Shown: positions 12,112 to 39,887, counted from the first letter of the stretch. The stretch: 64,000 nucleotides of DNA from Patescibacteria group bacterium (GCA_041651355.1 JBAZJK010000001.1:683888-747887), one strand, 5' to 3'. Notes: generated by a model from the letters alone, not told the origin. Numbers and translations are program-made.

Positions 12112-12203
12112 GATTCAGATTTTAATATTAAACAATTTTAAAGAACTATCTTATTAACGCTTTAAAGCAATCTTAAACCCCGTCCTGACTTAAGTCAAAT
12201 ATT

Positions 12204-12234: not shown

Positions 12235-12238
12235 GGCG

Positions 12239-18922: not shown

Positions 18923-19260
18923 ATTTTTTGTTATATAAAAATACCTAAAATTAATCCTTTCATCAGGCTAATATAAAACTAATTACAGTATAACATTTTT
19001 TTAATTTTATCACTATACACAGAACGATAAAAATACAAAACATTGTTATTTCAGGATTTTGGGGCTATTATGATAATAGAAAAGATTTAAATTTTTAAAC
19101 AAGAAAATCTAAATCGTTCCTCTTGACAAAATCAACAAAAAAAACTAATATAACAAGTCTATCTAAAAATAGGCTGAAAGGAGCCATAAAGGCCCAAATA
19201 ACCCAGAACATTAACAAAAAAATAATAAAAACCATGCTAAACCCTTTAATTCAGAAACCC

Positions 19261-21524: not shown

Positions 21525-24500
21525 TTATACTGGGCCTTGGTTGCACATCGAGGGGTTATCATGCGGGAAACAAAACTCATAGCTGGTTTTATGACAGCAA
21601 AGATAGCCGGTTTCGCAATATTCATAATTCCCGCAATTCGGCAATTTGCATTGCTTATTGCTAGTGCAAACCTTGCCTTCGGGACAACCATCGTCTCCGG
21701 TGCCAGTGCCGCACAAACCGCCACAACCGTCGGCTCCGCACTGTTTATTAGTACAATTCCTTTGACAGCATTGACCATTCTTGCAAATCTGCCCAGGCGG
21801 AGTTTCGCAAACGCCACAAGATCCGCCGCAGCCATCTGGGCCGCATTGCTTATTAGTACAATTCGGGCAACAACCTTCTCTTTCACAACCATCAACCACG
21901 TTATTATTGCAATTTTTCCAACCGACTGCACAGGTAAACACTGAATTATTAAATACCTGATGGGGATACAAGCATGTCCCATCCGCCCCGGTTGGATTAT
22001 CAAACTGGCAATTGCTTGCACATTTTAGGGTTAAGCCTCCATAGGGCGCAACCGACCAAAAATTAAAATCTTTGCAGGTCTTGCCGCCAAAATCACACTG
22101 CCCGTTAGTAACATCGCAATCGCAAACTTCGCTAATTTGATTAATAATACCGTCACCACAAGTGGCCCCGGGGGGTGTACTACCGCCAGCGGCTTGTCCG
22201 CAATCTTCCGGGGCATTGATAGGAGTTTCTAAAGGAAGGCCGCTGCTATAATCTATAGTTTCACATAAGCCATCACCTTTAAACCCGCCGCCCTTAAGAG
22301 GCGAAGAGAACACGCAATAAGAACCGTTTTTTATCGGATACACAAAATCAGAATTTGAATCACAAGAATACTGTCTGGAAATACTGCTGTTAGCCGGCCA
22401 ATCGCTAATAAGAGGCACGGAACGGGTCGTTGAGGCAATGCCGTCGCAATCCTCAAAACCATCATTATAATAACCACCCTTCCCCTCAGTGTTCGGATAA
22501 CCCTTCACCCCGTCGCCGCAAAAACTATTAATCTTCAAACTAAAAGATTTACTACTAGCGGTCTTAAAATCATTGGTAGCTGTAATCGTCACGTCATATG
22601 AACCAATATCACCGATAGTAATATTCGGAACCGCAGTATTATTATGTATATAATAACGATTTGAATCAATCTCTCCGGGGTTATTTATGGCCGCATAAGC
22701 TTCCTTATCAACGAATAAACTAGAAGAGCCAAACAAACCGCTTAACAATCTCATAAACCACGATTTTTTAGCTACTGTATTAGTATTTTTATCTTTAGAA
22801 ACCTGACTATAGTTGTTATCAAGTATTAAAGCATTACTAGAGGGCAAGCCAATGGCGGTATAGGAAATTGTATAATCACCTTGTAACCTATTACCAATAA
22901 AACAAGCATAAGGGCGGCCAACCCTGGCTTCTGCTGGACAATTAAAATCAAGAATTGGAGGGGTGACTACTATATTAAACTTGATTTTTTTAGAAACTCC
23001 ACCAGGGCCACCAACAGATAATAAATAAACTGTAGTTGTGTTGGATAAGAAGGGACCGTTAGGATAACTTCCAGTGCTTAAAGACTTTAAGTCATTTCTA
23101 TTAGACTTCATTTTTATCTCATATTTATTCTCGCCCAACCTAGTAGACGACAAAAGAGCCGGGTCAAAATCACCTAAATTTCTCCCGCCGCCAGTTTCGC
23201 GTGTTAAAGTTTTTGATAAGCTACCATCTCCAGTATAAATAAAGGAGTATTCTAGATTGCTATTCGGCTTGAGCACGTGCGTGATATCTTCGGCCTCGAG
23301 AAGGACTTGAGATTCAGAGATCTTAATCGGTATAGTGGTGGTGGTCATGGTGCCATTACCATCATTAACGGAAAAACTGAAGTGATAGTTGCCCGGATCA
23401 CCGGCCTTAGCTGCGTGCAATTTGATCTGGTTAGGATTATTAGTCATTTGCATCACTGGCATATTATCCCAGGACCAATCATCGGTAGGTACAAAATTAA
23501 AAGTCAAAGGGTTGTTTTCAGCATCAAAAACTTTGATGAAACCGTTAAATTCCTGGCCGCTAATACCGTTTAACTGATAATCAACTATCTTAGGCGGGGT
23601 ATTGGCAGCGCTGGTATTATTAATAATGGCATCAGCGCATCTAAACTTGGATAAAGCGTTGCCAGAGGTGTTATATTCATCCGGACTTTCCATACCGGCG
23701 CATAAAGTATAGGCTGAGCCATTACTGTCAGTAGAGTAATAGATAACTCGACTCATAGCTGGAAACTTGAGGTGCTTCCCGTCGGATGTCTTTTCAAAAA
23801 AAGTGTTATTATTCTTATTCCAACAAGTAGCCGCCTCAAAGCCTGGGCAATAGCCCATGGAGTCGATGGGGTCACTAAGCGTACTTAAACTTAAAGCCGG
23901 CAAGAGCACTTCGCGCCAACTAGGCCAAGTTGAAACTGTCTTGTGTTTTACGAAAGTGCCAGCATCTAAGACCGGGAAACGCTTATTGGCCGTTCGGTAA
24001 TTCGCTAAAGCTGCATCTAATTCTGACAAACGAGCCACCCGTTCAATATCTCTCGTTATTTTAGCTTTCAGGCTGGAACAAAAAACGCCGACTGAACAGT
24101 CAGTATCCGAATTACACTTTGAATCATTCTGAGGAATGCATTTATTGCGATAATCGCTGGCATCAGCGCTGCATTTATAACCAGTGGCACAATCTTTATC
24201 AGAATTACAGGGTACGGAACCAATATTGCAATTGCCTTCCAAAGAAGCCGAAGGGAAATTCTCATTAAACTTCCAATGGGAAACGATACTCCCTAAAACA
24301 TCGGAAGTTTGGGTATTAGCGGTTTGATTATATGAGATCAGATAAATATTAGTATATATGGTGGTGCCGATAACATTGGTCGCGTTTACATAAACTGTCC
24401 GGCCATCGCGGATTGCTTCATAGCCATCAACCGTCAAGGCTTGGGGGGAGCCTTTGAAGCCCTGCTCTTTATACCAGCGGGAAATCGAATAATGATGAGG

Positions 24501-24632
24501 ATTAGGTAGCACTCGGACCGCAATGGCGTCGGAGCTGTCTTGCTGGGCTCTAGTTAGCGGAGAAAAAAATAATAGGCTACCGAAAATAAAACCCAAAGCA
24601 AGAAAAAAAATTATAAATTTATGTTTTGACAT
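21525..24632 (-). CDS. Giant secreted cysteine-rich protein D (about 1,035 aa from the signal-peptide Met; the ORF track extends to 24689)
   Basis: Signal peptide MSKHKFIIFFLALGFIFGSLLFFSPLTRAQ. Contains CGDGVKGYP...EDCDG and CGDGIINQISEVCDCD (DUF4215-like). The C-terminus has tandem NCTNKQCG[PA]DGCGG[SL]CG modules and many Cys. Confidence 0.7.
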   Translation of the reverse strand: MSKHKFIIFFLALGFIFGSLLFFSPLTRAQQDSSDAIAVRVLPNPHHYSISRWYKEQGFKGSPQALTVDGYEAIRDGRTVYVNATNVIGTTIYTNIYLISYNQTANTQTSDVLGSIVSHWKFNENFPSASLEGNCNIGSVPCNSDKDCATGYKCSADASDYRNKCIPQNDSKCNSDTDCSVGVFCSSLKAKITRDIERVARLSELDAALANYRTANKRFPVLDAGTFVKHKTVSTWPSWREVLLPALSLSTLSDPIDSMGYCPGFEAATCWNKNNNTFFEKTSDGKHLKFPAMSRVIYYSTDSNGSAYTLCAGMESPDEYNTSGNALSKFRCADAIINNTSAANTPPKIVDYQLNGISGQEFNGFIKVFDAENNPLTFNFVPTDDWSWDNMPVMQMTNNPNQIKLHAAKAGDPGNYHFSFSVNDGNGTMTTTTIPIKISESQVLLEAEDITHVLKPNSNLEYSFIYTGDGSLSKTLTRETGGGRNLGDFDPALLSSTRLGENKYEIKMKSNRNDLKSLSTGSYPNGPFLSNTTTVYLLSVGGPGGVSKKIKFNIVVTPPILDFNCPAEARVGRPYACFIGNRLQGDYTISYTAIGLPSSNALILDNNYSQVSKDKNTNTVAKKSWFMRLLSGLFGSSSLFVDKEAYAAINNPGEIDSNRYYIHNNTAVPNITIGDIGSYDVTITATNDFKTASSKSFSLKINSFCGDGVKGYPNTEGKGGYYNDGFEDCDGIASTTRSVPLISDWPANSSISRQYSCDSNSDFVYPIKNGSYCVFSSPLKGGGFKGDGLCETIDYSSGLPLETPINAPEDCGQAAGGSTPPGATCGDGIINQISEVCDCDVTNGQCDFGGKTCKDFNFWSVAPYGGLTLKCASNCQFDNPTGADGTCLYPHQVFNNSVFTCAVGWKNCNNNVVDGCEREGCCPNCTNKQCGPDGCGGSCGVCETPPGQICKNGQCCQRNCTNKQCGADGCGGLCGTGTGDDGCPEGKVCTSNKQCKLPNCGNYEYCETGYLCCHKTSYEFCFPHDNPSMCNQGPV

Positions 24633-24651
24633 ATTTGAAATGATGCTAATT

Positions 24652-27600
24652 TTATCGTAAACCTCCGCCTCCGGCCTGCTCATATTCACAGGTATCCCAA
24701 TCTAGAGTATTTTTATTAAACCAATTACTCTTACAACTATATGAACAGTTAGAAAGACTGCAACTACTATCATTATATATCGGGGGCTTGGTAGCGGATA
24801 GATCCCATGACGTACAGGTGGTACCGTTGAAACTTATACAAGGGACAGAAAATACAGGGCTAGTACAAAAATTTACGTGATTAAAATTAGTATAACCCTT
24901 TGTCTGGTAAAAAGATTGGTATTCCGTGCTGCCGCAAGCGACATCTTTATATAGCCTACAATCTGAGCCACAGGTGAAACTGCCCTTCCCGGGGCCATCG
25001 CACTGTTCGTTGCCATTAATCACGCCATCGCCACAGCGTTCACAAACACCGCTATTGCAATTATAACTTCCAGGGCAAGTTTGCCCGCAGTCACCACAAT
25101 TTGTCTTATCGTTGCCCTGGACATTCGTTTCACATCCATCTTTAGCGCCAGTACAATCTTTATAGGGAGCATTACAACTATAATAACAAGCATTCAAAGG
25201 ACAAGTGCTGTTATTATAGACTGGGGGCAGCGTGCTTGAATACTGCCAACTGCCTGCCGGGCAATTATTGCTAATGTTATATTTACCATTTTCACAATAA
25301 ACTTTAAAAACCACGGCTGAAGACCCGCAAAAATTCATGCTAGACCAATTACTATAACCATTAGAAGACCAATAAGTCTGATATCCAGGACTAGTACAAG
25401 CAACTTGTTGATAAACTTTACAAGTCTCGTTGTCGCAGTATAAACCTCCGCCAGGATCAGTACCATCGCATTCTTCATTACCGTTCTTCACGCCATCGCC
25501 GCATCTCTGGCAGCTGCCGGCTATACATTGATATGACCCCGAACAAGTAGAATTAGGGCCGGTACAAGCACCACAATGATTTTCATCACTACTTAGGTCA
25601 ACCTCGCAAGTATCGATATCCTGCCCGTTACAATTACCTTTGCCAGCCTTACAATTATATTCGCATTGCTTATAGGCATTGCAAACGCCATAAGGATCGG
25701 GAGAAAAAACAGGATTTTGAGTTGGCCCCCAAACACTACAATAAGTCTGGCCTCCTTGGACAGCTGACCCGCTACAAATCTGAGTGTAAGTGCCACAGAA
25801 AAAATTTATATTATTTAAATTAGAGTAACCGGAATCTGCGCAAGACATAGTCCTAACTATTTTACAATCTAAATTACAGGACAAGGACGGAGTTTCGCTC
25901 TTAAAATTGGGGCTGGAATTATAATCGCATTGTTCTGACCCAGTCACAAAACCATCGCCGCAACTACCCTCCTTACATACTTTATTGATTGGATCCCATT
26001 CATAGCCTGGACTACAAGCACAGGAACCGCTCTGGCAAAAACCATGGCTACCAAAACTACCATTGTTACATTTATTACCGCACGTGCCGCAATTTAGCAG
26101 GTCATGCTGAAGATCTACGCAAACACCGCTACATTCGCCAGAGGAACAAGCGCAGGATCCATTAACACACTGGCTCAAAGTCGGACAAGCGTTATTACAT
26201 GCGCCGCAGTGGCTGTTGTTAGAGGCGGTATTTATTTCACAACCATTAGCAGTATTTTCGTCACAATCACGGTAACTCCCGGAACAATCGCAAGATTTGC
26301 TGGGCCAAGTGCCAAGACAATCATAGTTCTTACCTGTATCGCAAGCTTGGCCACAGGCGCCGCAGTTGCTAAAATTGCTCAGACTAGTCTGACAACCGAC
26401 ATCGGTGCCACATTTGCCAAAAGGTTCATTCGGATTGCATTTAAACCGGCAAGTAGTTTCTGATCCTTGGATGTTATATTCGGTCACCAAATCTTTAGGC
26501 GGGTTAGCCTCCCAGGCGCCACAAGCATTATTAGCGCCATTAGCGCCGGTGCATTTAATGTTATATCCATTCACAGAATTAAAAACATTATAACCGGCCG
26601 GAAGGGCGGGACAAGAATAGAAATAATTTCCATATTTACAATTTTCCGTACAGCCAGAACTCGCATTATTATTACCAGAACCAAAATCACATTGTTCCGG
26701 ACTAGTTACCAGGCCGTTGCCACAGATAGGAGCTGAGCATGAAGCGTTGCTACTGCCCGCCCCAGACCCAAAACAAGTCCAAATATACTTGCCTCCAGAA
26801 GGAGTGACCGCTGAAGCGCTCCCGCTGGCACAGAGTCCTGAGGTAGGCGTAGAAGTAAGCGGCAGGTTATGGGCCTCACCGCACACTCCGCTAGACCGAC
26901 GAGTCGCCGAACAATTGACTGGGCTACCGTTATTGCCATCACAACTCCAATTCCAGCCGGCAGAGTTGGAAACAAAATCTTTGACGGTCCCTACACCACA
27001 GTTGCCCGCATCATAATAAGTCAGGCTAGTTAAATCCTTGCCATTGTTAGCCCCGCAAACCGGAGTTACTTTACAATCGCTCCACAGACAAGCATCACAA
27101 GTTTTTTTGCCAGAAAACCCACTCCAAACACAATCCTGAGGCTGAGGCCAAGCTCCGCTAGAATCTTGTTCACACTGCTCACGGCCTTCCAGTTGCTTAT
27201 TACCACAAGCCTGAGAACCTATATTGCAATTCCCTAGATGACAACCCGCTTCACAATTAGTTGTTCCTGAGTATAAACCGAGATTGCAATTGAAAGATCC
27301 CGAGCCGTCACAAGCTTCAGGACCGTTAGTAATTCCATCGCCGCAAGATTCGGCTGCTTGGCAAGCATTCCAAGCCCGGCAACCATCAGTTTCGCTGCTG
27401 CTAACGCAAGTCTGCTGCCCCCTATAACTACTGCCTGATAAAATACAGGCTTTCGAATTATTATCGCAAATCTCATTATTACCCGGCTCTATCAAGCCAT
27501 TACCGCATTTATTAAGATTGCCGAGATCAAGAGCGATCGGCTCAGATTTATTACTCTCGACTCCATTCGCTCCAATAGCGCTCAGGGCAAAATAATGGAT

Positions 27601-28008
27601 TTTAGGACTCATCTGGCTATAATCAAATTCGATATTAGAAGCCTTGAGTTGCGAATCATATGACTCGCTATAGACGCCCGACTCTACCCCGTGATACAAG
27701 CGATAGAATTGGGTGCTGTCGTTATTTGGCGTCCAGAAAAAGTTGATCGTCTTAGAACCAGCCGCTAAAGCCGCGCTCAAGCCCAAAGGAGGCAGGGCAT
27801 TCTTCTTAACTAGATTCATCCTACCGCTATTTAGCAAGGCTTGGATTTCGGCATCGCTCTCCTTATAGAAATCAGAAAAAGTCCTTTGGATGACTAAAAA
27901 TTCCAAACCGAGGATAAAGGTAAATACTAATAACAAGATTAGCTTTAAATTATGCGGCAACATCGGCTTGGTTTTCTTTTTCCCAGCCGTACTTTTTTTG
28001 GAAGCCAT
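24652..28008 (-). CDS. Giant secreted cysteine-rich protein C (1,118 aa): N-terminal TM, an FN3-like domain, then at least six CG[ND]G....E.CD repeats in about 150-aa tandem modules
   Basis: TM LKLILLLVFTFILGLEFLVI. Repeats CGNGLIEPGNNEICD, CGDGITNGPEACDG, CGNGLVTSPEQCDFG, CGDGFVTGSEQCDY, CGDGVKNGNEECDG and CGDGVINGNEQCDG. Three long modules each end in a Cys-rich knot. Confidence 0.7.
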   Translation of the reverse strand: MASKKSTAGKKKTKPMLPHNLKLILLLVFTFILGLEFLVIQRTFSDFYKESDAEIQALLNSGRMNLVKKNALPPLGLSAALAAGSKTINFFWTPNNDSTQFYRLYHGVESGVYSESYDSQLKASNIEFDYSQMSPKIHYFALSAIGANGVESNKSEPIALDLGNLNKCGNGLIEPGNNEICDNNSKACILSGSSYRGQQTCVSSSETDGCRAWNACQAAESCGDGITNGPEACDGSGSFNCNLGLYSGTTNCEAGCHLGNCNIGSQACGNKQLEGREQCEQDSSGAWPQPQDCVWSGFSGKKTCDACLWSDCKVTPVCGANNGKDLTSLTYYDAGNCGVGTVKDFVSNSAGWNWSCDGNNGSPVNCSATRRSSGVCGEAHNLPLTSTPTSGLCASGSASAVTPSGGKYIWTCFGSGAGSSNASCSAPICGNGLVTSPEQCDFGSGNNNASSGCTENCKYGNYFYSCPALPAGYNVFNSVNGYNIKCTGANGANNACGAWEANPPKDLVTEYNIQGSETTCRFKCNPNEPFGKCGTDVGCQTSLSNFSNCGACGQACDTGKNYDCLGTWPSKSCDCSGSYRDCDENTANGCEINTASNNSHCGACNNACPTLSQCVNGSCACSSGECSGVCVDLQHDLLNCGTCGNKCNNGSFGSHGFCQSGSCACSPGYEWDPINKVCKEGSCGDGFVTGSEQCDYNSSPNFKSETPSLSCNLDCKIVRTMSCADSGYSNLNNINFFCGTYTQICSGSAVQGGQTYCSVWGPTQNPVFSPDPYGVCNAYKQCEYNCKAGKGNCNGQDIDTCEVDLSSDENHCGACTGPNSTCSGSYQCIAGSCQRCGDGVKNGNEECDGTDPGGGLYCDNETCKVYQQVACTSPGYQTYWSSNGYSNWSSMNFCGSSAVVFKVYCENGKYNISNNCPAGSWQYSSTLPPVYNNSTCPLNACYYSCNAPYKDCTGAKDGCETNVQGNDKTNCGDCGQTCPGSYNCNSGVCERCGDGVINGNEQCDGPGKGSFTCGSDCRLYKDVACGSTEYQSFYQTKGYTNFNHVNFCTSPVFSVPCISFNGTTCTSWDLSATKPPIYNDSSCSLSNCSYSCKSNWFNKNTLDWDTCEYEQAGGGGLR

Positions 28009-28033: not shown

Positions 28034-31000
28034 TTAGCCGCCAGCTCCGAAACCCAAGGGCACTAGAGGTGGGCGCATATCAGTCGGAGTCACTTCGGCC
28101 GGGTCGGATAATTCACTCTCTTGGTTTTTATTGGTTAAAGCCGTTATCCTAAAAGAATATAACTGCTTGTCGCTAAGACCGGTAATAGTATATATACAGA
28201 CATAATCTAATCCGCTTTCCACACAATTATCAGACGCTAACACCCGCTTATTACTTTGAGAGGCTCCGGAAATACCATAATAAATCTTATAGGTACTAAC
28301 GCTAGTCGACTGGTCAACCGCTCTGATAGAACGCCATTGCAATTCGACCGTACCACCAATCTTTTTATCAGTAGCGCTAACTATCGTCACAATCTTCGGC
28401 TTAGCGGCCCTAAAGAAATATGATTCCTTCAAAACATTAAAGATGCACTGGCCATAAGAACCGCAAGCATCACCGCTATTAGCTCCCGTGGGGCAAGGCT
28501 CGCCGCCAACGCTGCAGATGAGGGCGCTATTTTGTCCCCTGGTCACCGGATCTTCGTTAATAGCCGGTAAATCATCGGCCGTACCTGGTTGTCCGGAATC
28601 ACGGCAATAATAGAATTTATAATTAAAGTTATTACAAGCGCCGCCAGCATCACAATTAGAATCATCTAACCAAGGACTCCAAATTCCCGAAGCTGGCACT
28701 GATGGCCAAGGATTCTCGCACACAAACACATAAACTGGGGCGGAACCAATAGCGCCGTCCCCGGCGGTGATTACTGACTTCATATCTACTTCGGCAGTAA
28801 CAGAAGTGCTGTCATCAGTCACTCCGGTCTTAGCTCGCAGCAAAGTCTTATTCTCAGCAGTCCCCCAATTAATCCCCGCTACTTGGTCGACCACATCAGC
28901 ATCATCTACGCCCCAAATCCAATCCCAATCATATTCAGATAACGGATTCAAATATTGGCCATCTTTACTTAACGCATAGGCGCTAAACGCCTTATCGCTA
29001 TCTCGTTTAGAATCAAAACTAGAATTAGTCGAATCAGAATCATTTTCGTTCAGATCATTATTGGTCGTCTGGAACAGATATGAAGAGGGAGAGACTTGGA
29101 CGTGATCAACCGTGCAGATGCCAGCGTCTGCTCCCTGCGAAGACATAGTCCGGAAAACGGAAATATATGAATTAACGTAATTTATCTTGTTGAAGGAAAT
29201 ATCCTGTCCCTCGATCGTCGTACCCCCACCCAGATTCAAACCAGCACCGTTCAAACCGGTCGCCCAATAGCTAAGGACGCCGCTATCGCTATGCAAGAAT
29301 TGATCACCTTTGACAACTATATAATATACGGTGTTAGGGTTTAAAAGCTTCTGGGGGCTAAAAATAAGGGTATCACTAGCAGATTTTTCATTGCTGACTA
29401 AACCAGGAATAGAACAATACACCTTGTCATTATTATTTCCTGGATTAGTGAAAGCGGCTAAACTGGTCTGTCTAGAAAAGACTCGGGAAATATTTCGCCC
29501 AACATAAAATACCTTATCCAGGATCCGGGCTAAGAAATTTTTAGATTTAGGTTGTTCTAACAAACTGTTATCAGCTAAGAAAGTTCCGGAGGGACAAGAT
29601 GACCCCGGGGCACGCTCCTCTAAAAGAAGCACGTTACCGGTAAAACTATTAACATCCATCGCCTGGTTGAAAGTAACTTTAATCAAGGCGTTACGGCAGA
29701 CATTTTCAGCGAGCTCAGCTGGAGTGGTCGAGGCAGTTTTAACCTCTGGCCTGGTTCGACAGCAGGAATTAATATCACAAGCGACATTGTCAGAACCGCC
29801 GCAATGTTCATCTTCAGAGCAACCGCAACATAGGCCGCGGCCAGCTCCGGAACAAGGGGCTTGATCAGCCTCGCATTGTAGTTTTAAATTTGGTTCTCCG
29901 GTGTTGATTCCGGCGCAAACGTCAGTAGCAGCGCCAACCTGACAGCAACAAGCACCGCAATCGCTAGCCCCCGCTCCGCCGACGCCGCCATTTTCAAGGA
30001 AACAACCGAAAGGCTGAGGGCAAGCGAAAGCATTACAACCGCTGGCCGTCAGATTAGAGCAAGTCATGCCTACGCCACCCGGACTACAGCTAGTCTGACA
30101 TTTATCCTGGCTCAAATAGCTACCCGTCTTATTAGCCGACGAACAATCAGGACAAGTATAATAAGCGCAATAACCGATATCAGCACCTGTTTCTATCCTC
30201 TCCTCGCCTTTACAGACATTATTACTAAAATCCCAACAACAGCTGGCGTCCATCAAACAATCATTTTCCACGCTTATTGCGGCACAATGGCTTGACCCAG
30301 GATTATCCTGGCAAGCCTGACCGCAAACCTCTGTATTTTCATATAAACCATAGGCTAAAGGAGTATTAAGGCCACATTGGCTGGGATTAGCTTGGTCACA
30401 ATCATAATAAGAACAATAGCCATAATAAGTATCTGTACTGTTCTCACTCACCCGGCCGCCACTCACATTAACGCCACGGCAAGCGCCGCCACTAGCGCCG
30501 TCGATACAGCAAGAGGCATGGCTGGCGCACAATCCATTATTCGAAGATAGGATATCGCAATCAGCGCAATAGCCTTCAGGAAATTCTGGATCGCCGACTT
30601 CGCAATATTGCCCGCTATGTCCAGAACAGTTACAAGCAGCATCCCAATCTGCCTGATTGCCACCAGGCGTCTTACAGCCAGTACATTTACCCAGACCGCT
30701 GTTTTTATCTTTAGCTGGATTAGTGTCAGAGCCGCAAGCGCCGCCGCAAGTCAAGCCGGCACAGCAATCCTGGGCCGCTTGTTCAACCCGACAACAGCAT
30801 TGACAACTAGGACTTTCATAGCATTTATTATCCGTAGCATCACAGCTGGAACCGCCAGGACAATCAACTGGCTTGGCACAGACACCAACACTGCCGCTAG
30901 TATTAAAAGCAGCGCATTCAAAACCATCGGCACAACTGATACAAGAAGTACCATTTTTATTGTCTCTATATTTATTATTACCAAGATTAATCCAGCCTGT

Positions 31001-33484
31001 GCCGGCATCTTGAGGCGGATTAATGGCTGGATAGCCAGCGCTATTTACCACCCAATGATATTCATTATTAGCCGACTTAGTGCAAACACGGAAAGAGTTG
31101 ATATCCTTTTCCCAAATAGATAAATTGCAAGGAGATTGAGTATCGTCGACACATTTATCTAAAACATTATTATATACGCCCGACGTGCAACAGACTCCTT
31201 TGTCAACTTTAGTGGTTAAATTAAAAGGAGAGCATTGGCCAGGAGAGTTGGGGCAAGATTTGCCTGTTTGGCAGGTCCCGACCGCCTTAGCCCAGCCATT
31301 ACAACTATATTGGTCTGTTAGATTATAGTAATTAGTATCAAATCTCCATTCAAAAACGGATTTTTTAGTGCTCCCAGCACAGTCACTCTCACTAGCCACA
31401 CAGGAACCTTTCTTGTAGCTCCCTTCCTGGCAACAAATATTATCAACCCCGCATTCTCCGTCGGTTTTACAGGCGCCAACGGAAAAGTTAAAAGGATTGC
31501 TGGAATTCCCGTTATTAACCACCACGACTGGACCGGAAGCGGCTCCGCCAGGAACGTTTGGCGCCATCTTTTGGGATTTATTCTTTCCCTGTCCTTCGGT
31601 GGTAATCGCAGCGCTGACTGCTTGTTCGCTATAAAATTTAGTAGTACCATTGGCACCCGATCCAAAATATTCGCCCCACAAGGCTACCGACGTGCCCACC
31701 TGTCCTTTGATCGGAAACATTTTACATAAACCAGGGTTTAAGGGGTCGTTAGCTTTAAAAATAAATTCACTGTTATTAGGCGGAGTAAGATCCTTAGTGC
31801 TCAGCCTTTCTTCTCCGCCAGCAAAAACTATATCCAGATAATAGCTGCTATTGTCGGCTAAACCGCTAGGAACCTTAACGATAATCTGATCCTCGCTCCA
31901 AATCGCATCCGCGCAGACTTCGGGAAAATCAAAATTGGCATCCGTCTCGCTCATAGGGTTACTGCCTTTTAAGACGAATTTAACTGTGCTCTTCCCTTGA
32001 ATCCGGCCAAAACCCTTTCCCCTGATGGTCACATATTGCCCAACCGGCCCTTTATCGGGCGTGAAGCCGGAAATAAAACGAGTCAAAGTTTCTTCGCCCA
32101 CCTTTCTGAATTTAAGATAATTACTTTTTAAAGGAACGGCAGCAGCCATCTTAGTTACGAAAAAAGTTGTCTTGCCAGAGACAATATCAGGAATAATCGA
32201 TTTGCCCACCTTGTTGTCTGTCACTAAGTCAGTCCCCTTACTGGAAACAGCCGCTTCATAAGAACCAAAATATGATTTAACTCCGGTCAGGTTAACGCCG
32301 TAGTAATAAAAATCTCCCTTTTGTCCTTCAGCTGGATCAAGGGAACACAAGCCAGGCCGGACTATGTTATTAGCGATAAAATCTGGCACCTGCGGACCAT
32401 TAGCATCATTAGTCATATCCGATTGGCCGTCGCTCCGCACTATTTTTAATTGATAAGATCCATTTAAACCGCTTGGGACACTGATTATTACCTGTTCGCT
32501 AGTCCAATTACTGACGCAAGGAGCGCCGGGCGTCCCAGCTAAGGTTTCACCTGCAGGATTAACAAACAGGATCTTGCTACTCGCAGCATCATAATCGCCA
32601 AAATTATAACCATAGACAGATAATAGGTTGCCGCTAGCGCCATTAGGATTACTTAAATTACAAATTCCACTCGCGCAATCAGTATCGCTAACACAGGGGC
32701 TATCGGGAGCAGATTCGCAATAGCCTCCAACCGGACTAATTTCATTTATCATCGGAGCGCCCTGGCAGGTACAATCACTTTCACTGCAAGTCAAAGCCGG
32801 ACCGCACTTACTTTCGTCCTTATCGCAAACAGCCGTGCCCGGATCAGCATCGCAGGACTCTCCTAAACCAGCCGGGGGAACACAAAAACAATTAGAATCG
32901 CAAGTGTAGCCGTCTTGGCAACTGCCGTCTTGGCAACCGTTTCCGCCGGAGGTGGTGCATTTTTCTAAATTAGCGAAACCGCAATTACTACCAACGCAAG
33001 TCCCAAAACCGCTGCTGCAATCCCAAACCCCGGAACAGCCGCAAGGAGCGCCGGAAACACAACCACTTTGGCTGCCATTACCAGTAGCATCAACTAATTT
33101 ATTCAGAACAAACCTCGCTATTCCCCAAGAAGCTAAGATGATAACTAAACCTATCGCTCCATTCCGCAGGAGCTTTTTAGCATCTTCAACTTTCTTTTCA
33201 TCGCCATCGCTAGTCATCCATTTGAAACCTCCGGCCAACATGATGACCACAGCTATCGCCGACAAGAAAAGCATGGCGATATTTATTATTCTGGCACCGA
33301 TCGCCCGAGGATCATCGGTCCCTAAAGCGATCTCATTATCAATTTCAGCCACACCGACATCGATTTGAGCATTGGTAATCTGGAAAAAAGCTAAAATGCT
33401 GAAAAATATCAGGATAAAACTAAATAATTTTAAGATGTTTTTTCTCGACACAGGCGTAAATTTAAATATTTTTATTGGGCACAA
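28034..33484 (-). CDS. Giant cysteine-rich surface protein B (1,816 aa): VirB2/TrbC-like pilin N-domain, Cys-knot regions, several IPT/TIG-like Ig domains and a C-terminal FN3
   Basis: N-terminus after signal peptide: ARIINIAMLFLSAIAVVIMLAGGFKWMTSDGDEKKVEDAKKLLRNGAIGLVIILASWGIARFVLNKL (two hydrophobic helices with a charged loop). IPT-like blocks ISPVGGY...LSVYGYNFG. FN3-like TYKIYYGISG...YSFRITALTN. Overlaps gene A by 13 nt. Confidence 0.75.
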   Translation of the reverse strand: MCPIKIFKFTPVSRKNILKLFSFILIFFSILAFFQITNAQIDVGVAEIDNEIALGTDDPRAIGARIINIAMLFLSAIAVVIMLAGGFKWMTSDGDEKKVEDAKKLLRNGAIGLVIILASWGIARFVLNKLVDATGNGSQSGCVSGAPCGCSGVWDCSSGFGTCVGSNCGFANLEKCTTSGGNGCQDGSCQDGYTCDSNCFCVPPAGLGESCDADPGTAVCDKDESKCGPALTCSESDCTCQGAPMINEISPVGGYCESAPDSPCVSDTDCASGICNLSNPNGASGNLLSVYGYNFGDYDAASSKILFVNPAGETLAGTPGAPCVSNWTSEQVIISVPSGLNGSYQLKIVRSDGQSDMTNDANGPQVPDFIANNIVRPGLCSLDPAEGQKGDFYYYGVNLTGVKSYFGSYEAAVSSKGTDLVTDNKVGKSIIPDIVSGKTTFFVTKMAAAVPLKSNYLKFRKVGEETLTRFISGFTPDKGPVGQYVTIRGKGFGRIQGKSTVKFVLKGSNPMSETDANFDFPEVCADAIWSEDQIIVKVPSGLADNSSYYLDIVFAGGEERLSTKDLTPPNNSEFIFKANDPLNPGLCKMFPIKGQVGTSVALWGEYFGSGANGTTKFYSEQAVSAAITTEGQGKNKSQKMAPNVPGGAASGPVVVVNNGNSSNPFNFSVGACKTDGECGVDNICCQEGSYKKGSCVASESDCAGSTKKSVFEWRFDTNYYNLTDQYSCNGWAKAVGTCQTGKSCPNSPGQCSPFNLTTKVDKGVCCTSGVYNNVLDKCVDDTQSPCNLSIWEKDINSFRVCTKSANNEYHWVVNSAGYPAINPPQDAGTGWINLGNNKYRDNKNGTSCISCADGFECAAFNTSGSVGVCAKPVDCPGGSSCDATDNKCYESPSCQCCCRVEQAAQDCCAGLTCGGACGSDTNPAKDKNSGLGKCTGCKTPGGNQADWDAACNCSGHSGQYCEVGDPEFPEGYCADCDILSSNNGLCASHASCCIDGASGGACRGVNVSGGRVSENSTDTYYGYCSYYDCDQANPSQCGLNTPLAYGLYENTEVCGQACQDNPGSSHCAAISVENDCLMDASCCWDFSNNVCKGEERIETGADIGYCAYYTCPDCSSANKTGSYLSQDKCQTSCSPGGVGMTCSNLTASGCNAFACPQPFGCFLENGGVGGAGASDCGACCCQVGAATDVCAGINTGEPNLKLQCEADQAPCSGAGRGLCCGCSEDEHCGGSDNVACDINSCCRTRPEVKTASTTPAELAENVCRNALIKVTFNQAMDVNSFTGNVLLLEERAPGSSCPSGTFLADNSLLEQPKSKNFLARILDKVFYVGRNISRVFSRQTSLAAFTNPGNNNDKVYCSIPGLVSNEKSASDTLIFSPQKLLNPNTVYYIVVKGDQFLHSDSGVLSYWATGLNGAGLNLGGGTTIEGQDISFNKINYVNSYISVFRTMSSQGADAGICTVDHVQVSPSSYLFQTTNNDLNENDSDSTNSSFDSKRDSDKAFSAYALSKDGQYLNPLSEYDWDWIWGVDDADVVDQVAGINWGTAENKTLLRAKTGVTDDSTSVTAEVDMKSVITAGDGAIGSAPVYVFVCENPWPSVPASGIWSPWLDDSNCDAGGACNNFNYKFYYCRDSGQPGTADDLPAINEDPVTRGQNSALICSVGGEPCPTGANSGDACGSYGQCIFNVLKESYFFRAAKPKIVTIVSATDKKIGGTVELQWRSIRAVDQSTSVSTYKIYYGISGASQSNKRVLASDNCVESGLDYVCIYTITGLSDKQLYSFRITALTNKNQESELSDPAEVTPTDMRPPLVPLGFGAGG

Positions 33485-36156
33485 TTACCTTTATTATCCA
33501 AGCCATTCTCGGCCGTGGGGCTACCAAAACAACAAGAAGATTGAGTATCGTCCGCTAAACAAGTCCCGCCAGCACTAGGCTTGAAACAATTTTGATAGAT
33601 GTCACGCAAACCAGAGCCGGCTTGAGCATTATAGGTCACAGATTCATTAAAGTTAGAGTGGAGAATATAAACATCACTCCTGTCCGGCCAACCGTCTGGG
33701 TTATTTTCATCTTTATTTTCTATCCCCGCCCAGTACCCTAGAGGCTGGGGAGTCTGGCTCCAAAGGTTAAGATAATTATGGGTGACGCCGTCCTTCTCTT
33801 CGCTGCCGGTCTTAATCGTGCTAGCCATCATCAAAGTATCAAAAGGAATCTTAATAGCCGCAGTTAAATCAGTGGGCGAACCACTCACTGGGCTAGGACT
33901 GCCAGAAATTTTAGGCGGATTAACTTTGATCTGGTTATTTATGAAAAAATACCATGAATAATTGTCTCCATGTTGAGGGTGCTGATTAATCGAATTAGCA
34001 ACATAAGGTATGCCCGCTGGGCCGTCACAAAAACCATCCTGATCGCCATCTAAAGAATTATTAGCCAGGTCAACCAAGCCATGAAGATTTTGGGGGTTTA
34101 AATCGGCTAAAGGATAATTTCTTAAATTACTATCCCGACAAGTCTTGTGATCCAATTCCACATTAGGCAAACATTTATAACTACCGAACTTAGTGCAGTC
34201 ACCATCACTAGAACATGTAAAAAGTTCAGCGGCATTCACAAAAGCCATTAACTGGCTATCTGATGGAAGGCAATATATCTTATCACCGCAACCGTTCATC
34301 CCGCATTCATTATTAGAAATAAACTCTACCGTCTTATAATTGCTACCCGCCGCAAATTTACCAGACAGGTAATCACCGACACATTTACCATTCTCACATT
34401 TAGCTGATAAGCATTCTAGATCGCCAGAACAATTATCTCCATTTCTTTTATTAGAAACGAAATTGCCAGTAATATTTAAAATCTGGAGATAGTCCTTTAA
34501 TTCATCAGCACTACCAGAGATAGTCATCGGATTAATCGGCTCATCAAAGACTATCTGGATTACTGAATTTCTTGGCTGGTCCGGCTTGCCTTGGACATTC
34601 ATGCCTTGGACATTATCTAGCCCCCCGGTCATTTGGGATAAAGCTATATTAGAATCATTGGTTTTTAGAATAATATTATCCCCGGCTAAACCTGCCTCCC
34701 TCGCCCTAAGCGATAGGGTGCCACCATTAAGACTACTAACCTCGACATCTGGATTCGGCTGGCTCGGAGAATTAATTTTCTCCTTTAAATTCGAGGCGGA
34801 ATCATTGATGCTGCTACCAACCTCGACATTATTGCCGTTAGAATTACCAGCAAAAGAATAAACAGTCTGCCCGACCGTGACGGTGCTAGCTATTTTCTCT
34901 GGATTAACGGAAATAGCCCAAGCGTCACCTGCTTCCGGATCAGCATCAATGGTAAAGCCGAAATAATTAGGAAAATCGATAGAACGCCCATTAAAATCGG
35001 CGGCCATTAAATTAATATTGGTTCCGCCTGAAACCTTAAATAGGACTCCTTTGCCCTTATCAGCGTCATAACTAACCTTAAATGACGCATCCTGGCCGTG
35101 ATAGTTATTAGAATGTTTTTCTGTATCATCAGGCATAGTCGAATTGTCGGGCGTAATATTAGCTACGCTGGCCGCCTGATAGGCTTGGGGTTGTGAATTT
35201 AAAGTTACGCTCCCCTGAGAACGCCTTTCTACCGCCGGATAAGGCGTATCTTTTTGATTATCCGGTACCGGGAAAACACCGATGATCTTAGGCGGGGTTA
35301 AATCTAATTTATTGCTGACTTCAAAACTCCAAATATAAGTATCTGACGCACAGGTCTTAAAAATTGATTCATCCAGACCGTCTTTCTTTATCTTTCCGCT
35401 TAAAGTTATGGAATAATCAGTATAGCCCGTATCAGAGCCCAGATATTCGTTGGTCCTAATAACCAAAGTTTTCTTATCGCTAGTGATAGAAACAGTGGCC
35501 GCCGCAGCCGTAGTACTGGTTTCAGCTAAAATCGAGACACTATCTGTTTTCAAAGCTTCATTGTCGCAATTGCCGTTACTATTTGCGTCTTCACAAACAG
35601 TCGTCGGGTTAATCGGCTCTTTAAACGTCACTAAAATAGCCGTATTTCTTGGTACCTCTTTTTGGTCTGGCGCCGGATACACACTTTCTAGAGTACAATT
35701 ACCCAAAGCCCCAGCTCCTGATTCCAAAGCTGATCTTTTAGCGCCAGCTGGCTCACTGCTCGTCCCCTGGCTTTGATCGATAAGCTTGTTCAATATGAAG
35801 GTAGTAATGCTCCAAGAAGCAAAAATAATAACCAGACCGATGACTGATTGTTTTAAAATCCGTTTAGCCTGGCTGATCTTATCTTCATTGCCATCACTCA
35901 TCATCCAAAGAGCGCCAGCATAAATTATCAGGATAACGGTGACCGCGCCCAAGAGACTAAGGAAGATCTGGATGATCCGAGCGGCCATCACCCGGGGGTC
36001 ATCTGAAGAAAGCCCGATGCTATTATTTACCACCTCGATACCAGCGTCGATTCCCTGGGCCTTAACCACAGAAAACCACAGGACTCCTAAGCTTAAAATA
36101 ACTAAAAAAAACCAGCTATTTCTTAACTTTTTAGAAATTTTTGATTTAATTATCAT
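33472..36156 (-). CDS. Giant surface protein A (894 aa): VirB2/TrbC-like pilin N-domain fused to a large Ig-like/Cys-containing ectodomain
   Basis: N-terminal domain ARIIQIFLSLLGAVTVILIIYAGALWMMSDGNEDKISQAKRILKQSVIGLVIIFASWSITTFILNKL is about 50% identical to the N-domain of B. First gene of the run. Confidence 0.75.
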   Translation of the reverse strand: MIIKSKISKKLRNSWFFLVILSLGVLWFSVVKAQGIDAGIEVVNNSIGLSSDDPRVMAARIIQIFLSLLGAVTVILIIYAGALWMMSDGNEDKISQAKRILKQSVIGLVIIFASWSITTFILNKLIDQSQGTSSEPAGAKRSALESGAGALGNCTLESVYPAPDQKEVPRNTAILVTFKEPINPTTVCEDANSNGNCDNEALKTDSVSILAETSTTAAAATVSITSDKKTLVIRTNEYLGSDTGYTDYSITLSGKIKKDGLDESIFKTCASDTYIWSFEVSNKLDLTPPKIIGVFPVPDNQKDTPYPAVERRSQGSVTLNSQPQAYQAASVANITPDNSTMPDDTEKHSNNYHGQDASFKVSYDADKGKGVLFKVSGGTNINLMAADFNGRSIDFPNYFGFTIDADPEAGDAWAISVNPEKIASTVTVGQTVYSFAGNSNGNNVEVGSSINDSASNLKEKINSPSQPNPDVEVSSLNGGTLSLRAREAGLAGDNIILKTNDSNIALSQMTGGLDNVQGMNVQGKPDQPRNSVIQIVFDEPINPMTISGSADELKDYLQILNITGNFVSNKRNGDNCSGDLECLSAKCENGKCVGDYLSGKFAAGSNYKTVEFISNNECGMNGCGDKIYCLPSDSQLMAFVNAAELFTCSSDGDCTKFGSYKCLPNVELDHKTCRDSNLRNYPLADLNPQNLHGLVDLANNSLDGDQDGFCDGPAGIPYVANSINQHPQHGDNYSWYFFINNQIKVNPPKISGSPSPVSGSPTDLTAAIKIPFDTLMMASTIKTGSEEKDGVTHNYLNLWSQTPQPLGYWAGIENKDENNPDGWPDRSDVYILHSNFNESVTYNAQAGSGLRDIYQNCFKPSAGGTCLADDTQSSCCFGSPTAENGLDNKGNCAQ

Positions 36157-37739: not shown

Positions 37740-37982
37740 TTAACGATTATTAACGGTTTCTTCTAGTTTCCCGATTTTGCGCAGATATTCTTTCTTTTTG
37801 CGCATATCCAAGCTAATCAAGGCAGACTTCTTGACCTGGCGCTTAGTCTTCTTCGGTTCCAAATATTTTTTGGAACGAGCTTTTTCTAAGCGTTTACTAT
37901 TCTTCAAGGCCTTCTTGAACTTACGCAAGAAACTTTCAAAACTTTCTCCTGGTTTACGTTTTAAATCAGCCATATAAAACAC
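37740..37982 (-). CDS. rpsU: 30S ribosomal protein S21
   Basis: 80-aa basic protein; ESFESFLRKFKKALKNS...KKYLEPKKTKRQVKKSA follows the S21 pattern (RRFKR...EKPS..RKR). Confidence 0.55.
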   Translation of the reverse strand: MFYMADLKRKPGESFESFLRKFKKALKNSKRLEKARSKKYLEPKKTKRQVKKSALISLDMRKKKEYLRKIGKLEETVNNR

Positions 37983-39318
37983 CTCTCTTTCTATTTATTT
38001 TTTTCTCTAATTTATCCTTAATTTTCTTATAAGGCACAACCTCTTGGACGGCCGAATCCATATCACGCATAATAATGGTTTCATCCATCACTTCCTTCTT
38101 CCCTAAAATCAAACTTAATTTAGCCTTCATATTAGTCGCTTCTTCCATTTGATTCTTCAAGCTATCAGAACAGAAAGAATGACGAACGTTAAATCCGGCC
38201 TTCCTTAAATCTTCAAATAACAACAAAGATTTTATTTTTGCTTGCTCGCCTAGCTGTCCGATAAAAATAATATCGTCAGCCGGAACATAGAATAGATCTC
38301 GATTATCTTTAGCCTTAATCACTGTTCTCTCCAAACCGATTGCTAAGCCAGCGGCTGGAGTAGCCGGACCGCCAAAAGATTCGATCAAAGTATCAAAACG
38401 CCCGCCGCCAGCCAAAGCTAATTTGCTCTGAGCGACGCCATCCTCTGATACCGGCCAAAACTCAAATACTGTATCGTTATAATATGACAAACCTCTCACT
38501 AGATAAGGATTGAAATTATAGTTAATACCTAATTCATCCAAGTGCTCTAAGGCTTTTTTGAAATGATCTCGACTCGCTTCATTTAAATAATCAGCGATCT
38601 GCGGCGCCTCTTCTTTCATCTTAGCGCAAGCGTCTTCCTTACAATCCAGAAGGGTTAGGGAATTCTTACCCAGATTCTTCTTGCAAGCATTGCAAAGCTT
38701 GGAACGGCGACCGCGCTCCTTATAAAAATTAAGCAAACGGGTATTATACTCCTTGCGGCATTCCGGCCCACCCAAGCTATTAACTTGGACTTGGACGTTA
38801 ATTTTTAATTCTTTAAAAAAATTATTAGCTAAAGCGATCAAACCAACCTCGGCCATCGGTTTATTATCACCGATAATCTCCAAATCCAATTGGTTGGATT
38901 CACGATAACGTCCTGATTGCAACTTTTCCTGTCGAAAAATTGGCCCCATGGAAAAGATTTTCAAAGGCAAAGTAAACTGGTTGATATTTTCCAGGTAGGC
39001 CCGGATAATTCCTTGGGTTATTTCCGGCCGCAAGACGATCTTTTCCGCCTTTTCTCCTTCGACCCAATATAATTCCTTATCAATCGGACGCCGGCTGGAT
39101 TTTTTATATAAATCATAGCTTTCTAGCAGAGGAGTCTTTAGATAATTAAAGCCAAAATATTCCGCCAATTCATAAGCGCGATCCGAAACGGCCTTAAAAT
39201 AGCGCCAGTCAGAAGGTAGGGTATCTTTCATGCCCAAAATCCTACCAGAAGATTGAGCCTTCTTTTCGGGCTTTTTAACAGCATTATCCTTGGTGGCATT
39301 TTTTTTAGGTCGAGGCAT
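37966..39318 (-). CDS. hisS: Histidyl-tRNA synthetase (the more canonical copy)
   Basis: LRPEIT (RPEGT-like His-A motif), motif 2 QSGRYRESNQLDLEIIG, motif 3 GGGRFDTL, GLAIGLERTV, and a C-terminal anticodon-binding domain. Confidence 0.75.
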   Translation of the reverse strand: MPRPKKNATKDNAVKKPEKKAQSSGRILGMKDTLPSDWRYFKAVSDRAYELAEYFGFNYLKTPLLESYDLYKKSSRRPIDKELYWVEGEKAEKIVLRPEITQGIIRAYLENINQFTLPLKIFSMGPIFRQEKLQSGRYRESNQLDLEIIGDNKPMAEVGLIALANNFFKELKINVQVQVNSLGGPECRKEYNTRLLNFYKERGRRSKLCNACKKNLGKNSLTLLDCKEDACAKMKEEAPQIADYLNEASRDHFKKALEHLDELGINYNFNPYLVRGLSYYNDTVFEFWPVSEDGVAQSKLALAGGGRFDTLIESFGGPATPAAGLAIGLERTVIKAKDNRDLFYVPADDIIFIGQLGEQAKIKSLLLFEDLRKAGFNVRHSFCSDSLKNQMEEATNMKAKLSLILGKKEVMDETIIMRDMDSAVQEVVPYKKIKDKLEKKINRKRGVLYG

Positions 39319-39326
39319 AGGTTTTA

Positions 39327-39887
39327 TTAATATTGAGGCAAATCTTTAAAAACTTTTATCTTATTAAAGGGGTAACCGCGAAAATAAACGCGTCCCGTGA
39401 TGAAACTTTTATTCAAAGGACCAAAAATCCTAGAGTCTTTAGAGGCATTACGATTGTCGCCTAAGACAAAATATTCATCTGGCCCCAAACTTATCTTGGC
39501 ATCGCTAGCGCTATAAGTACCTAAATCAGCTGGCAAATAATTTTCTTTAAGGACGAAACCGTCAGGGTTAGCCTGGTTATAAATATGGACTTCCCCGTCT
39601 TTCACCTGCACGCTTTCGCCCGGCAAACCGATGAGCCTCTTGATGAAATATTCTTGCGGGTCCATGGGGTAACGGAAAACTATGATTTCACCTCTTTGTG
39701 GCTCTTGAAAACGGTAGCTTATCTCATCAATAATCAGATATTCGCGGTCGTGGAAGTTGGGCTCCATGGAAGCGCCTTTGACGTAGAAGGGTTGGATTAA
39801 AAAATAGCGGACTGGAATGATAATTGCCAAAGAAATCGCCGCTACTTTAACAAACTCCCACAAAAAAATAAAAAATCTTTTAAACAT
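39327..39887 (-). CDS. lepB: Signal peptidase I
   Basis: N-terminal TM, GASMEPNF (catalytic Ser box) and VLGDNRNASKDSR (Lys box region). A strong SD gaggagg lies upstream. Confidence 0.8.
   Translation of the reverse strand: MFKRFFIFLWEFVKVAAISLAIIIPVRYFLIQPFYVKGASMEPNFHDREYLIIDEISYRFQEPQRGEIIVFRYPMDPQEYFIKRLIGLPGESVQVKDGEVHIYNQANPDGFVLKENYLPADLGTYSASDAKISLGPDEYFVLGDNRNASKDSRIFGPLNKSFITGRVYFRGYPFNKIKVFKDLPQY

Follow-up and report, generated by a model that had tools for sequence, protein, structure and literature searches.

We analyzed a stretch of 64,000 nucleotides (hereafter the window) from a Patescibacteria group bacterium (GCA_041651355.1, JBAZJK010000001.1:683888-747887), in which two adjacent genes, called here A and B, code for giant proteins that begin with a pilin module. 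Four long open reading frames (ORFs), A, B, C and D, are arranged head to tail on the minus strand of this region. Gene A (33472..36156, minus strand) is an ORF of 894 amino acids (aa) with an ATG start, and its translation contains a signal peptide, a module of the Pfam family PF18895 and an ectodomain of about 760 aa with Big_5 Ig-like domains. Gene B (28034..33484, minus strand) also codes for a signal peptide and a PF18895 module, followed by a Cys-rich ectodomain of about 1,680 aa (TIG, Big_5 and fn3 domains); read from a TTG it gives 1,816 aa and overlaps the end of A by 13 nt. The start of B is more likely the GTG at 33451, which gives a protein of 1,805 aa. This GTG is the start called on an independent assembly, and it leaves a cleaner signal peptide, (M)SRKNILKLFSFILIFFSILAFFQITNA|Q. 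The NCBI entry MFA5163593.1, from a contig of 881,714 bp and titled 'MAG: Ig-like domain-containing protein [Patescibacteria group bacterium]', has the same sequence as protein A. The nearest species-representative genome by protein A is a Candidatus Falkowbacteria metagenome-assembled genome (MAG), at 51% identity, and we take the source of A and B to be a Patescibacteria bacterium of the class ABY1, Falkowbacteria-like. An artefact of gene calling, or a merging of separate genes, was considered and rejected, as the lengths of A and B recur in independent assemblies and in over 100 orthologs. A scan of the A/B operon for promoters and terminators gave counts not above those of shuffled controls.

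Domain organization of proteins A and B

The signal peptide of A covers residues 1-33 (36058..36156, minus strand). Its sequence shows a basic n-region and a hydrophobic core, and positions -3 and -1 carry small residues; cleavage by signal peptidase I is predicted at VKA|QG. The signal peptide of B covers residues 12-39 in the numbering from TTG (33368..33451, minus strand), with a cleavage predicted in the same way at TNA|QI. The pilin module of A follows at residues 34-130 (35767..36057, minus strand) and is composed of a DPR motif, a first helix (54-86), a loop WMxSDGNEDK..AKR and a second helix (91-130). In B the module occupies residues 40-135 (33080..33367, minus strand); it scored 137.9 bits in a scan of the window with a hidden Markov model (HMM) of the family, which was run on the six frames and found the module in A and B only.

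The ectodomain of A (residues 131-894; 33475..35766, minus strand) is made of a Gly/Ser linker, one or more Big_5 Ig-like domains and a conserved C-terminal region containing Cys. Pfam places Big_5 at residues 155-257, and this domain was present in all of the orthologs scanned (10/10). Invariant Cys and other invariant residues are spread along the whole ectodomain. A profile search of the PDB with the A family returned no relative among solved structures, and a prediction of full-length A by AlphaFold2 (AF2), made without an alignment, had a mean pLDDT of 36, the N-terminal helices alone being confident. Protein B contains 115 Cys, i.e. 6.3% of its residues. The two proteins end with ...NKGNCAQ (A) and ...PLGFGAGG (B), and reading of these C-termini revealed neither an LPXTG or similar sorting motif nor a terminal hydrophobic tail.

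Identity of the shared module

The N-termini of A and B were compared by BLASTP, which gave 41-42% identity over 141-143 aa (E 2e-35). The similarity is confined to the first ~135 residues, and nothing detectably similar was found by BLASTP outside the N-termini. Without gaps, 45 of 96 positions (47%) are identical in the mature module and 39 of 76 (51%) from DDPR to NKLxD. These values agree with a first sequence-only reading of the window, which had estimated about 50% identity over roughly 90 aa, and all of the motifs it had listed are found in the two proteins: DDPR...ARII, G..WM, SDG.E.K, AK+, IGL, ASW and F.LNKL.

The module is a member of PF18895 (T4SS_pilin), a family named after the type IV secretion system (T4SS). 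The gathering score of this family is 26.6 bits, and the full proteins reach 39.3 bits for A (E 6.9e-10) and 34.6 bits for B (E 2e-8); when the N-termini are isolated the scores are 43.0 and 39.3 bits, the match in A lying at residues 59-121. Such matches are far beyond chance. An alignment of 37 module relatives was also examined, and all 37 match PF18895. All 37 match in addition the NCBIfam family NF045849, below or around its cutoff, with a best E of 3.7e-14. This is the sole NCBIfam match of the A/B module (29.8 bits for A, 32.0 for B and 35.5 for the isolated module, all under the equivalog cutoff of 40 bits).

The relationship with the classical TrbC/VirB2 pilins is more distant. The corresponding family, PF04956, is sub-threshold in A (18.0-19.6 bits for a cutoff of 27.9, E 1e-3 to 3.5e-3) and gave no match in B. 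It appears at E<0.1 in 20 of the 37 relatives (best E 6e-5), where it outnumbers every spurious membrane family. The module also has weak matches to unrelated membrane families, e.g. 7TM_GPCR_Srsx and Cyt_bd_oxida_II. A profile-profile comparison by hhalign was made between the alignment of relatives and a VirB2 alignment of 32 sequences, built from proteins retrieved with A. tumefaciens VirB2; with this VirB2 alignment, which is of low diversity, the probability was 49% (E 1.7e-4, 56 columns). It pairs DPR with (S/D)PATM and G..WM with G.SWMFG, the loop being about 8 residues longer in the Patescibacteria family. AF2, when given the alignment of relatives, predicts two long helices (54-86 and 91-130 in A) joined by a 4-residue turn, with a mean pLDDT of 81.7 and values above 90 in the helices. 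The link of the module to classical VirB2/TrbC is thus plausible but weak, and the predicted structure is consistent with it without being a proof. The sequence-only reading was right in seeing a pilin module, as judged from PF18895 above its gathering score in both proteins and from the predicted two-helix hairpin. It had gone too far in giving the signature WM...G..E..AKK...IGL to VirB2/TrbC itself: the signature is that of PF18895 and of the mycoplasma pilin-like family NF045849, and the classical family is reached only by sub-threshold scores and by the weak profile-profile similarity.

A pilin of the type IV pilus (T4P) was considered separately and rejected: the N-termini are of signal peptidase I type with AxA-like sites, G-F-x-x-x-E is absent, two helices are predicted instead of one, and the Pfam scans gave no T4P family.

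Conservation of the fusion

We searched for relatives of the module with HMMER, using a 4-sequence module profile in an exhaustive search, which was preferred to a word-indexed homolog search that gave only 2 proteins. The HMMER search returned 59,599 cluster representatives at E<=1e-3. The best 151 of these 59,599 comprise 87 tandem multi-pilin proteins, 27 short single pilins (121-198 aa), 30 giants, in which the module is located at residues ~30-130 and is followed by 440-3,700 more residues, and 7 proteins of intermediate size. BLAST against A and B showed that several of the intermediates are fragments of giants and that all 30 giants fall in two families, those of A and of B. Likewise, some of the entries that appear as short or mid-sized pilins in the clustered library are fragments of giants lying at contig ends (e.g. 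P0066). Members of the A family are 867-910 aa long and show 36-71% identity over their full length, with shorter forms of 571-676 aa that lack the middle of the protein. The members of the B family range from 1,800 to 3,821 aa. NCBI names for the A family vary between 'Ig-like domain-containing protein', 'hypothetical protein' and, for some members of ~890 aa, 'pilin'.

A reciprocal observation was obtained with the ectodomain of A only (residues 141-894). This search gave 157 proteins, and among the 120 listed the module was present in 116, the other 4 starting in mid-sequence; among the listed relatives, every N-terminally complete member of the A family has the module. The fusion had been described as unusual in the sequence-only reading. 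This holds in comparison with textbook pilins, but the fusion is not rare, and it defines two conserved and syntenic families.

Within A, conservation is highest in the module. Median identities to A in 112 full-length orthologs are 15% for the signal peptide, 32% for the region before the helices, 54% for the pilin core (residues 53-128), 27% for the linker and 37% for the ectodomain, so that the pilin core is the best-conserved segment and the signal peptide the least. The same tendency is found in B-like giants, with 40-50% identity in the module against 24-39% in the ectodomain. The columns common to giants and short pilins, D.G...gL..DPR...LG..AV...GF.WMT..G.eeK...AKk...vIGL.IiL...I..F...L..AT, include the loop. 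A neighbor-joining tree of the module is star-like, with one clade composed of short pilins only and the giants loosely grouped, and its resolution is too low to date the fusion.

As a separate observation, the top HMMER matches (P0003-P0065 and others) are single ORFs with 2-17 tandem PF18895/TrbC domains, which could be called polypilins. The protein P0007 has 17 pilin copies in 1,775 aa and lies in an archaeal-looking context (L009, 10001..15328), beside Ribosomal_L39e and a Csa1/Cas4-like gene. The polypilins may be real polyproteins cleaved into pilins, or merged gene calls.

Genes surrounding A and B

Downstream of B, gene C (24652..28008, minus strand) codes for a surface protein of 1,118 aa with a single-pass anchor and 9.7% Cys, and gene D (21525..24689, minus strand) for a secreted or anchored Cys-rich protein of 1,054 aa. 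They are followed by two genes for single-pass membrane proteins with TSP3 repeats, one of 243 aa (18191..18922, minus strand; PF18884, E 2.8e-18) and a second of 347 aa (16940..17983, minus strand), recognized by Pfam and by synteny with two relative contigs (L004 and L006). Both TSP3 proteins have Ser/Thr/Pro linkers and Ca-binding repeats, and the TSP3 family is found downstream of B-like giants in four contigs (L004, L006, L010 and L011).

Genes C and D are related to parts of longer B-like proteins. Residues 68-156 of C align to the end (residues 1922-2016) of P0149, a B-like protein of 2,116 aa, and residues 50-337 of D align inside B-like giants of 3.3-3.5 k-aa (P0125, P0117, P0121, P0107 and P0079). 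A C-like gene comes after B in L010 and L011. C and D are thus the counterparts of internal or C-terminal stretches of single B-like giants of 2.1-3.5 k-aa in other lineages, a case of gene fission or fusion within the locus. That B, C and D make up one polypeptide in some relatives suggests that they act together. We also observed that the C-terminus of B (PPLVPLGFGAGG, after its fn3 domain) resembles the segment that precedes the fn3-like region of C (PPLGLSAALAAG).

The order of genes at the locus is M16 peptidase, UvrD-like helicase, RuvB, QueA, signal peptidase I, HisRS, RelA/SpoT (on the opposite strand), A-like, B-like, C-like giant and TSP3. It is kept in three relatives, i.e. GCA_034723335.1, the Falkowbacteria MAG GCA_026396875.1 and a 959-kb ENA contig, which have an A ortholog ~35-38% identical in the ectodomain, or a B-like giant 33-50% identical to B. 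Shorter contigs of relatives show parts of this order. The signal peptidase I gene (S26 family; 39327..39887, minus strand) is a near neighbour of A and B in all of the long contexts (L006, L010 and L011), and it is probably a general housekeeping signal peptidase. A gene located between D and the TSP3 genes on the other strand (19123..21135, plus strand) codes for a protein of 670 aa with a Por_Secre_tail domain (PF18962, E 1.1e-10). One would not expect this C-terminal sorting domain of type IX secretion in a monoderm Patescibacterium. The syntenic loci of L010 and L011 lack the gene.

The rest of the window is ordinary chromosome. It contains SecDF, hutH/hutU, two HisRS, TyrRS, ClpP, RelA/SpoT, signal peptidase I, QueA and RuvB, together with a UvrD/PD-(D/E)XK helicase-nuclease, an M16 peptidase, GyrA, MscL, a 16S rRNA gene and tRNAs. 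A few features of this background can be mentioned. The genes hutH and hutU flank a second HisRS paralog beside tRNA-His (6874..12311, minus strand), a further HisRS being located at 37966..39318; it is curious to find, in a reduced genome of the candidate phyla radiation (CPR), a gene pair for histidine degradation interleaved with a duplicated HisRS. The 16S rRNA gene (58498..59976, plus strand) is complete and stands alone, with no adjacent 23S or 5S, and tRNA-Pro/Ala/Pro are found about 2.5 kb downstream (62462..62705). A prepilin peptidase of family A24, from the type IV pilus system (852..1673, minus strand), lies beside a 798-aa Wzy_C/O-antigen-ligase-like TPR protein (1696..4092, minus strand), and a second Wzy_C protein is present at 48550..49815. 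The prepilin peptidase indicates that the cell also has a type IV pilus machinery, distinct from the T4SS-type pilin module of A and B.

Comparison with known pilins and adhesins

Proteins of PF18895 are treated as VirB2-like pilins of the T4SS of Patescibacteria (PMC12102498, PMC10633639). Pilins of this type occur in 1,948 assemblies that also have VirB4, and their genes often form arrays of 2-11 divergent members (PMC12102498). In Ca. Southlakia epibionticum ML1 the pilin array of the T4SS cluster SEML1_0006-0019 is essential (PMC10633639; reviewed in PMC12857230); this is the one Patescibacteria species tested genetically, and both its T4SS and its VirB2-like pilins were found essential (PMC10633639). 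In the part of Table S1 of PMC12102498 considered here, VirB4 is marked 'Yes' for ABY1 and Falkowbacteria genomes. The same study detected no PrgB-like adhesin in Patescibacteria.

Proteins A and B resemble these pilins in their Pfam family, in the signal peptide followed by a two-helix hairpin, in the motifs DPR, G..WMT.G.E.K, AKK and IGL, and in the phylum. They differ from them in size and in location. The pilins described are small, often in tandem and often beside virB4, whereas A (894 aa) and B (~1,805-1,816 aa) form a conserved pair among housekeeping genes. The stand-alone PF18895 pilins sampled here have 121-198 aa; beyond the pilin part, A has ~760 further residues and B ~1,680. Large C-terminal fusions are not mentioned in the literature on Patescibacteria T4SS pilins that we consulted (PMC12102498, PMC10633639, PMC12857230), which describes small pilins.

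With the TrbC/VirB2 family (PF04956; A. tumefaciens VirB2, RP4 TrbC) and with F-like TraA, A and B share the layout of a signal peptide and two hydrophobic helices joined by a short basic loop; in the assembled pilus this loop is exposed to the lumen. The motif G..WM at the end of helix 1 is common to VirB2 and A/B, and the predicted mature N-terminal residue of A and B is Gln, as in VirB2. The differences are a score under the Pfam cutoff, the longer loop and the lack of a sequence match to solved pilins; moreover, a C-terminal processing or cyclisation would be impossible in A and B unless the ectodomain were removed. The best non-Pfam match of the A/B family, NF045849, corresponds to the Mbov_0395 / MMCAP2_0565 pilin-like conjugal transfer protein of mycoplasma integrative conjugative elements. 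This match agrees with the report that the T4SS of Patescibacteria is akin to monoderm (MPF-FATA) conjugation systems (PMC12102498). The NF045849 profile has 80 positions, to be compared with the 894 and ~1,810 aa of A and B, and its family is described by NCBIfam as a component of an integrative conjugative element whereas the A/B locus is chromosomal, syntenic and surrounded by housekeeping genes.

A parallel in design is found in modular type IV pilins (S. sanguinis PilB/PilC, ETEC CofB and V. cholerae TcpB; PMC8179133), in which a small N-terminal pilin module is followed by a linker and bulky adhesin modules. These are proposed to sit in low copy at the filament tip, the bulky module having been modelled as compatible with this position only (PMC8179133). 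The signal peptide of type IV pilins is of class III and is cut by a prepilin peptidase, and these proteins have only one N-terminal helix, in contrast to the signal peptidase I-type signal and predicted two-helix hairpin of A and B. Type IV pilins belong to an unrelated superfamily and use an unrelated machinery, so that the precedent they offer is one of analogy and not of membership. Possible functional equivalents, with large surface parts that are joined to a T4SS or act with it in contacting target cells, are VirB5, PrgB of pCF10 and the 'extended VirB6' proteins with large hydrophilic domains (PMC12857230). None has a sequence relationship to A or B, and VirB5 is a separate minor pilin with a soluble fold. 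A further difference concerns the Gram-positive PrgB-type adhesins, which are LPXTG wall-anchored; A and B have no LPXTG motif, unlike such sortase-anchored proteins.

A and B as proposed modular VirB2-like pilins

The explanation that we favour, with about half of our confidence, is that A and B are modular VirB2-like pilins, i.e. surface adhesin-like proteins, probably in low copy, that still engage pilin or T4SS partners. Export of both would go through Sec, with removal of the signal peptide by signal peptidase I. The PF18895 hairpin would be their sole hold in the cytoplasmic membrane, with the N-terminus out, helix 1 crossing from out to in, helix 2 from in to out, and the C-terminus out. 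This N-out/C-out arrangement is suggested by the succession of signal peptidase I-type signal peptides and two hydrophobic helices, and it is also the reported membrane topology of VirB2 and TraA pilins. The loop SDGNEDKISQAKRILKQS, which has four Lys/Arg, would be on the cytoplasmic side. All that lies beyond residue ~130 would be outside the cell, i.e. Big_5, TIG, fn3 and disulfide-rich modules, and such a location is consistent with the Cys-richness of B and C and with the Ig-like domains. A, B, C, D and the two Ca-binding TSP3 membrane proteins are probably the components of a conserved surface complex through which the cell makes contact with a host or partner.

The module itself would probably still engage the partners of a small pilin, namely other pilin subunits, lipid and/or the T4SS assembly machinery. 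We infer that it is more than a passive anchor from two observations: it is the best-conserved part of the protein, and it retains all of the positions invariant in the family, among them the loop motif of stand-alone pilins. Most likely, A and B would be subunits of low copy number, at the tip, at the base or as minor components, that display the ectodomain. The lumen of assembled T4SS pili is lined by the basic loop, and formation of the pilus requires Arg91 of VirB2, which lies just after WMFG (10.1101/2022.04.28.489814). The position of Arg91 is set by hhalign beside the family-invariant AK(K), a proximity that is suggestive only. A more precise version of this explanation, which we regard as rather unlikely as it stands, would make A and B the first 'modular' VirB2-type pilins: they would be low-copy tip or priming subunits of the Patescibacteria T4SS pilus, carrying adhesin arrays of 84-180 kDa at its end, and the A+B pair with C, D and TSP3 would be a dedicated tip complex encoded apart from the machinery genes.

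Several results weigh against the modular pilin explanation, one of them being the genomic location. A and B are neither in nor beside a T4SS cluster: Pfam found no VirB4, VirD4 or VirB6-type family in the window ORFs of at least 110 aa, where PrgI/VirB3 and TrsD were not found either, and a small pilin gene was not recognised in the window. Six further contigs with the corresponding locus (L003-L006, L010 and L011) have neither a T4SS gene nor a small pilin gene within ~10 kb of it. All window ORFs longer than 400 aa are assigned to a family or are A-D, while eight ORFs of 137-308 aa without a Pfam match could include a divergent small T4SS component. As for the contigs around short and tandem pilins, they are too short, or of too archaeal a type, to yield a Patescibacteria VirB4. 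Sequence-profile searches of the PDB with the module (with two alignments) or with the A family returned no pilin, be it VirB2, TraA or TrbC, and only spurious designed 'Pizza' repeats, and fold searches returned generic hairpins, the module not being separable from thousands of unrelated helical hairpins. The conservation of the hairpin could also have a cause other than a T4SS, e.g. pairing of A with B or oligomerisation within the membrane. Finally, a T4SS pilus is not known from any Patescibacterium. The 'pilin' function assigned to PF18895 is itself based on homology and on neighbouring genes, and we know of no precedent in T4SS pili for an appendage of ~1,680 aa on a pilin subunit.

Other explanations of A and B

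In a first alternative, the hairpin would have been co-opted as a plain N-out/C-out anchor, A and B never polymerising nor meeting a T4SS and forming with C, D and TSP3 a stationary surface layer or adhesin complex. We consider this possibility somewhat unlikely. It agrees with the housekeeping surroundings and with the absence of T4SS genes nearby in the seven contexts examined, and C and the TSP3 proteins do have ordinary single-pass anchors; the published survey counts in the same direction, the pilin gene being near virB4 in just 1,135 of the 1,948 assemblies with VirB4 and a VirB2-like pilin (PMC12102498). The conservation pattern argues against it. A mere anchor is expected to drift, but the hairpin is more conserved than the ectodomain and the signal peptide, the invariant residues of its loop are those of stand-alone pilins, and no N-terminally complete A-family member among the 120 listed has lost the module. 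That the module would not be related to pilins at all, being a generic composition of signal peptide and two transmembrane helices with a misleading Pfam name, is in our opinion extremely improbable. The generic hairpins of the fold searches, the weak matches to unrelated membrane families and the absence of a match to solved pilins would be explained in this way, but the polar motifs DPR, WMT.G.E.K and AKK are not compositional, and PF18895 exceeds its curated cutoff in 37/37 relatives. The same relatives all match NF045849, the profile-profile alignment with VirB2 lines up the W-M motif, and members of the family are located in T4SS clusters (PMC12102498, PMC10633639).

Two further explanations keep the pilin identity and change the fate of the ectodomain. 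A and/or B could self-assemble, as major subunits, into a VirB2-type pilus in which each subunit bears its giant ectodomain in the manner of a bottle-brush. The module is complete and conserved, and a flexible Gly/Ser/Asn linker leads into the ectodomain precisely at the point where a short pilin would terminate; conjugative pilins, besides, expose their C-terminus on the pilus surface. Such a decorated filament nevertheless appears highly improbable on steric grounds. Known T4SS pili have five subunits per layer with a rise of ~12-15 A in a 5-start assembly (10.1101/2022.04.28.489814), and the ~700 A^2 of outer surface that we estimate per subunit is very tight for appendages of 84-180 kDa. 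It has no known precedent, and the modular pilins of the T4P were modelled as fitting the tip only (PMC8179133). Alternatively, the module could serve for export or targeting, and the ectodomain be released after helix 2, near L..AT, as in the C-terminal processing of TrbC/VirB2, giving a small pilin and a giant protein that is secreted or attached separately. The conserved '..L..AT' boundary is indeed the natural C-terminus of short pilins, and an S26 signal peptidase gene is a conserved near neighbour; TraF, the maturation protease of TrbC, is also an S26-type enzyme. The S26 gene of the locus, however, is one of several housekeeping genes in a row, conservation of the linker is low (27%), and the released ectodomain would have no other recognisable anchor (LPXTG or similar). 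The sequence-only reading had pointed both to the N-terminal cleavage and to a possible TrbC-like C-terminal processing: signal peptidase I sites are indeed predicted at both N-termini, while no C-terminal cleavage motif could be identified, and we hold the release of the ectodomain to be very improbable.

Implications for Patescibacteria

The family PF18895 was already known, and some members of the A family of ~890 aa already carry the label 'pilin' at NCBI. What is new with respect to the literature searched is the obligate fusion of the module to large conserved ectodomains, the A+B(+C/D)+TSP3 locus, and the fact that the module is the most conserved part. Surveys in which VirB2 homologues are treated as small proteins could miss or miscount such fusions, and pilin censuses based on length would be distorted. 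A large part of bacterial diversity belongs to the Patescibacteria (CPR), which live in attachment to other cells. If A and B are tip subunits, they would supply the host-recognition element that is missing from the essential T4SS of these episymbionts, and the A/B family provides concrete candidates for the missing host-contact interface of the Patescibacteria T4SS.

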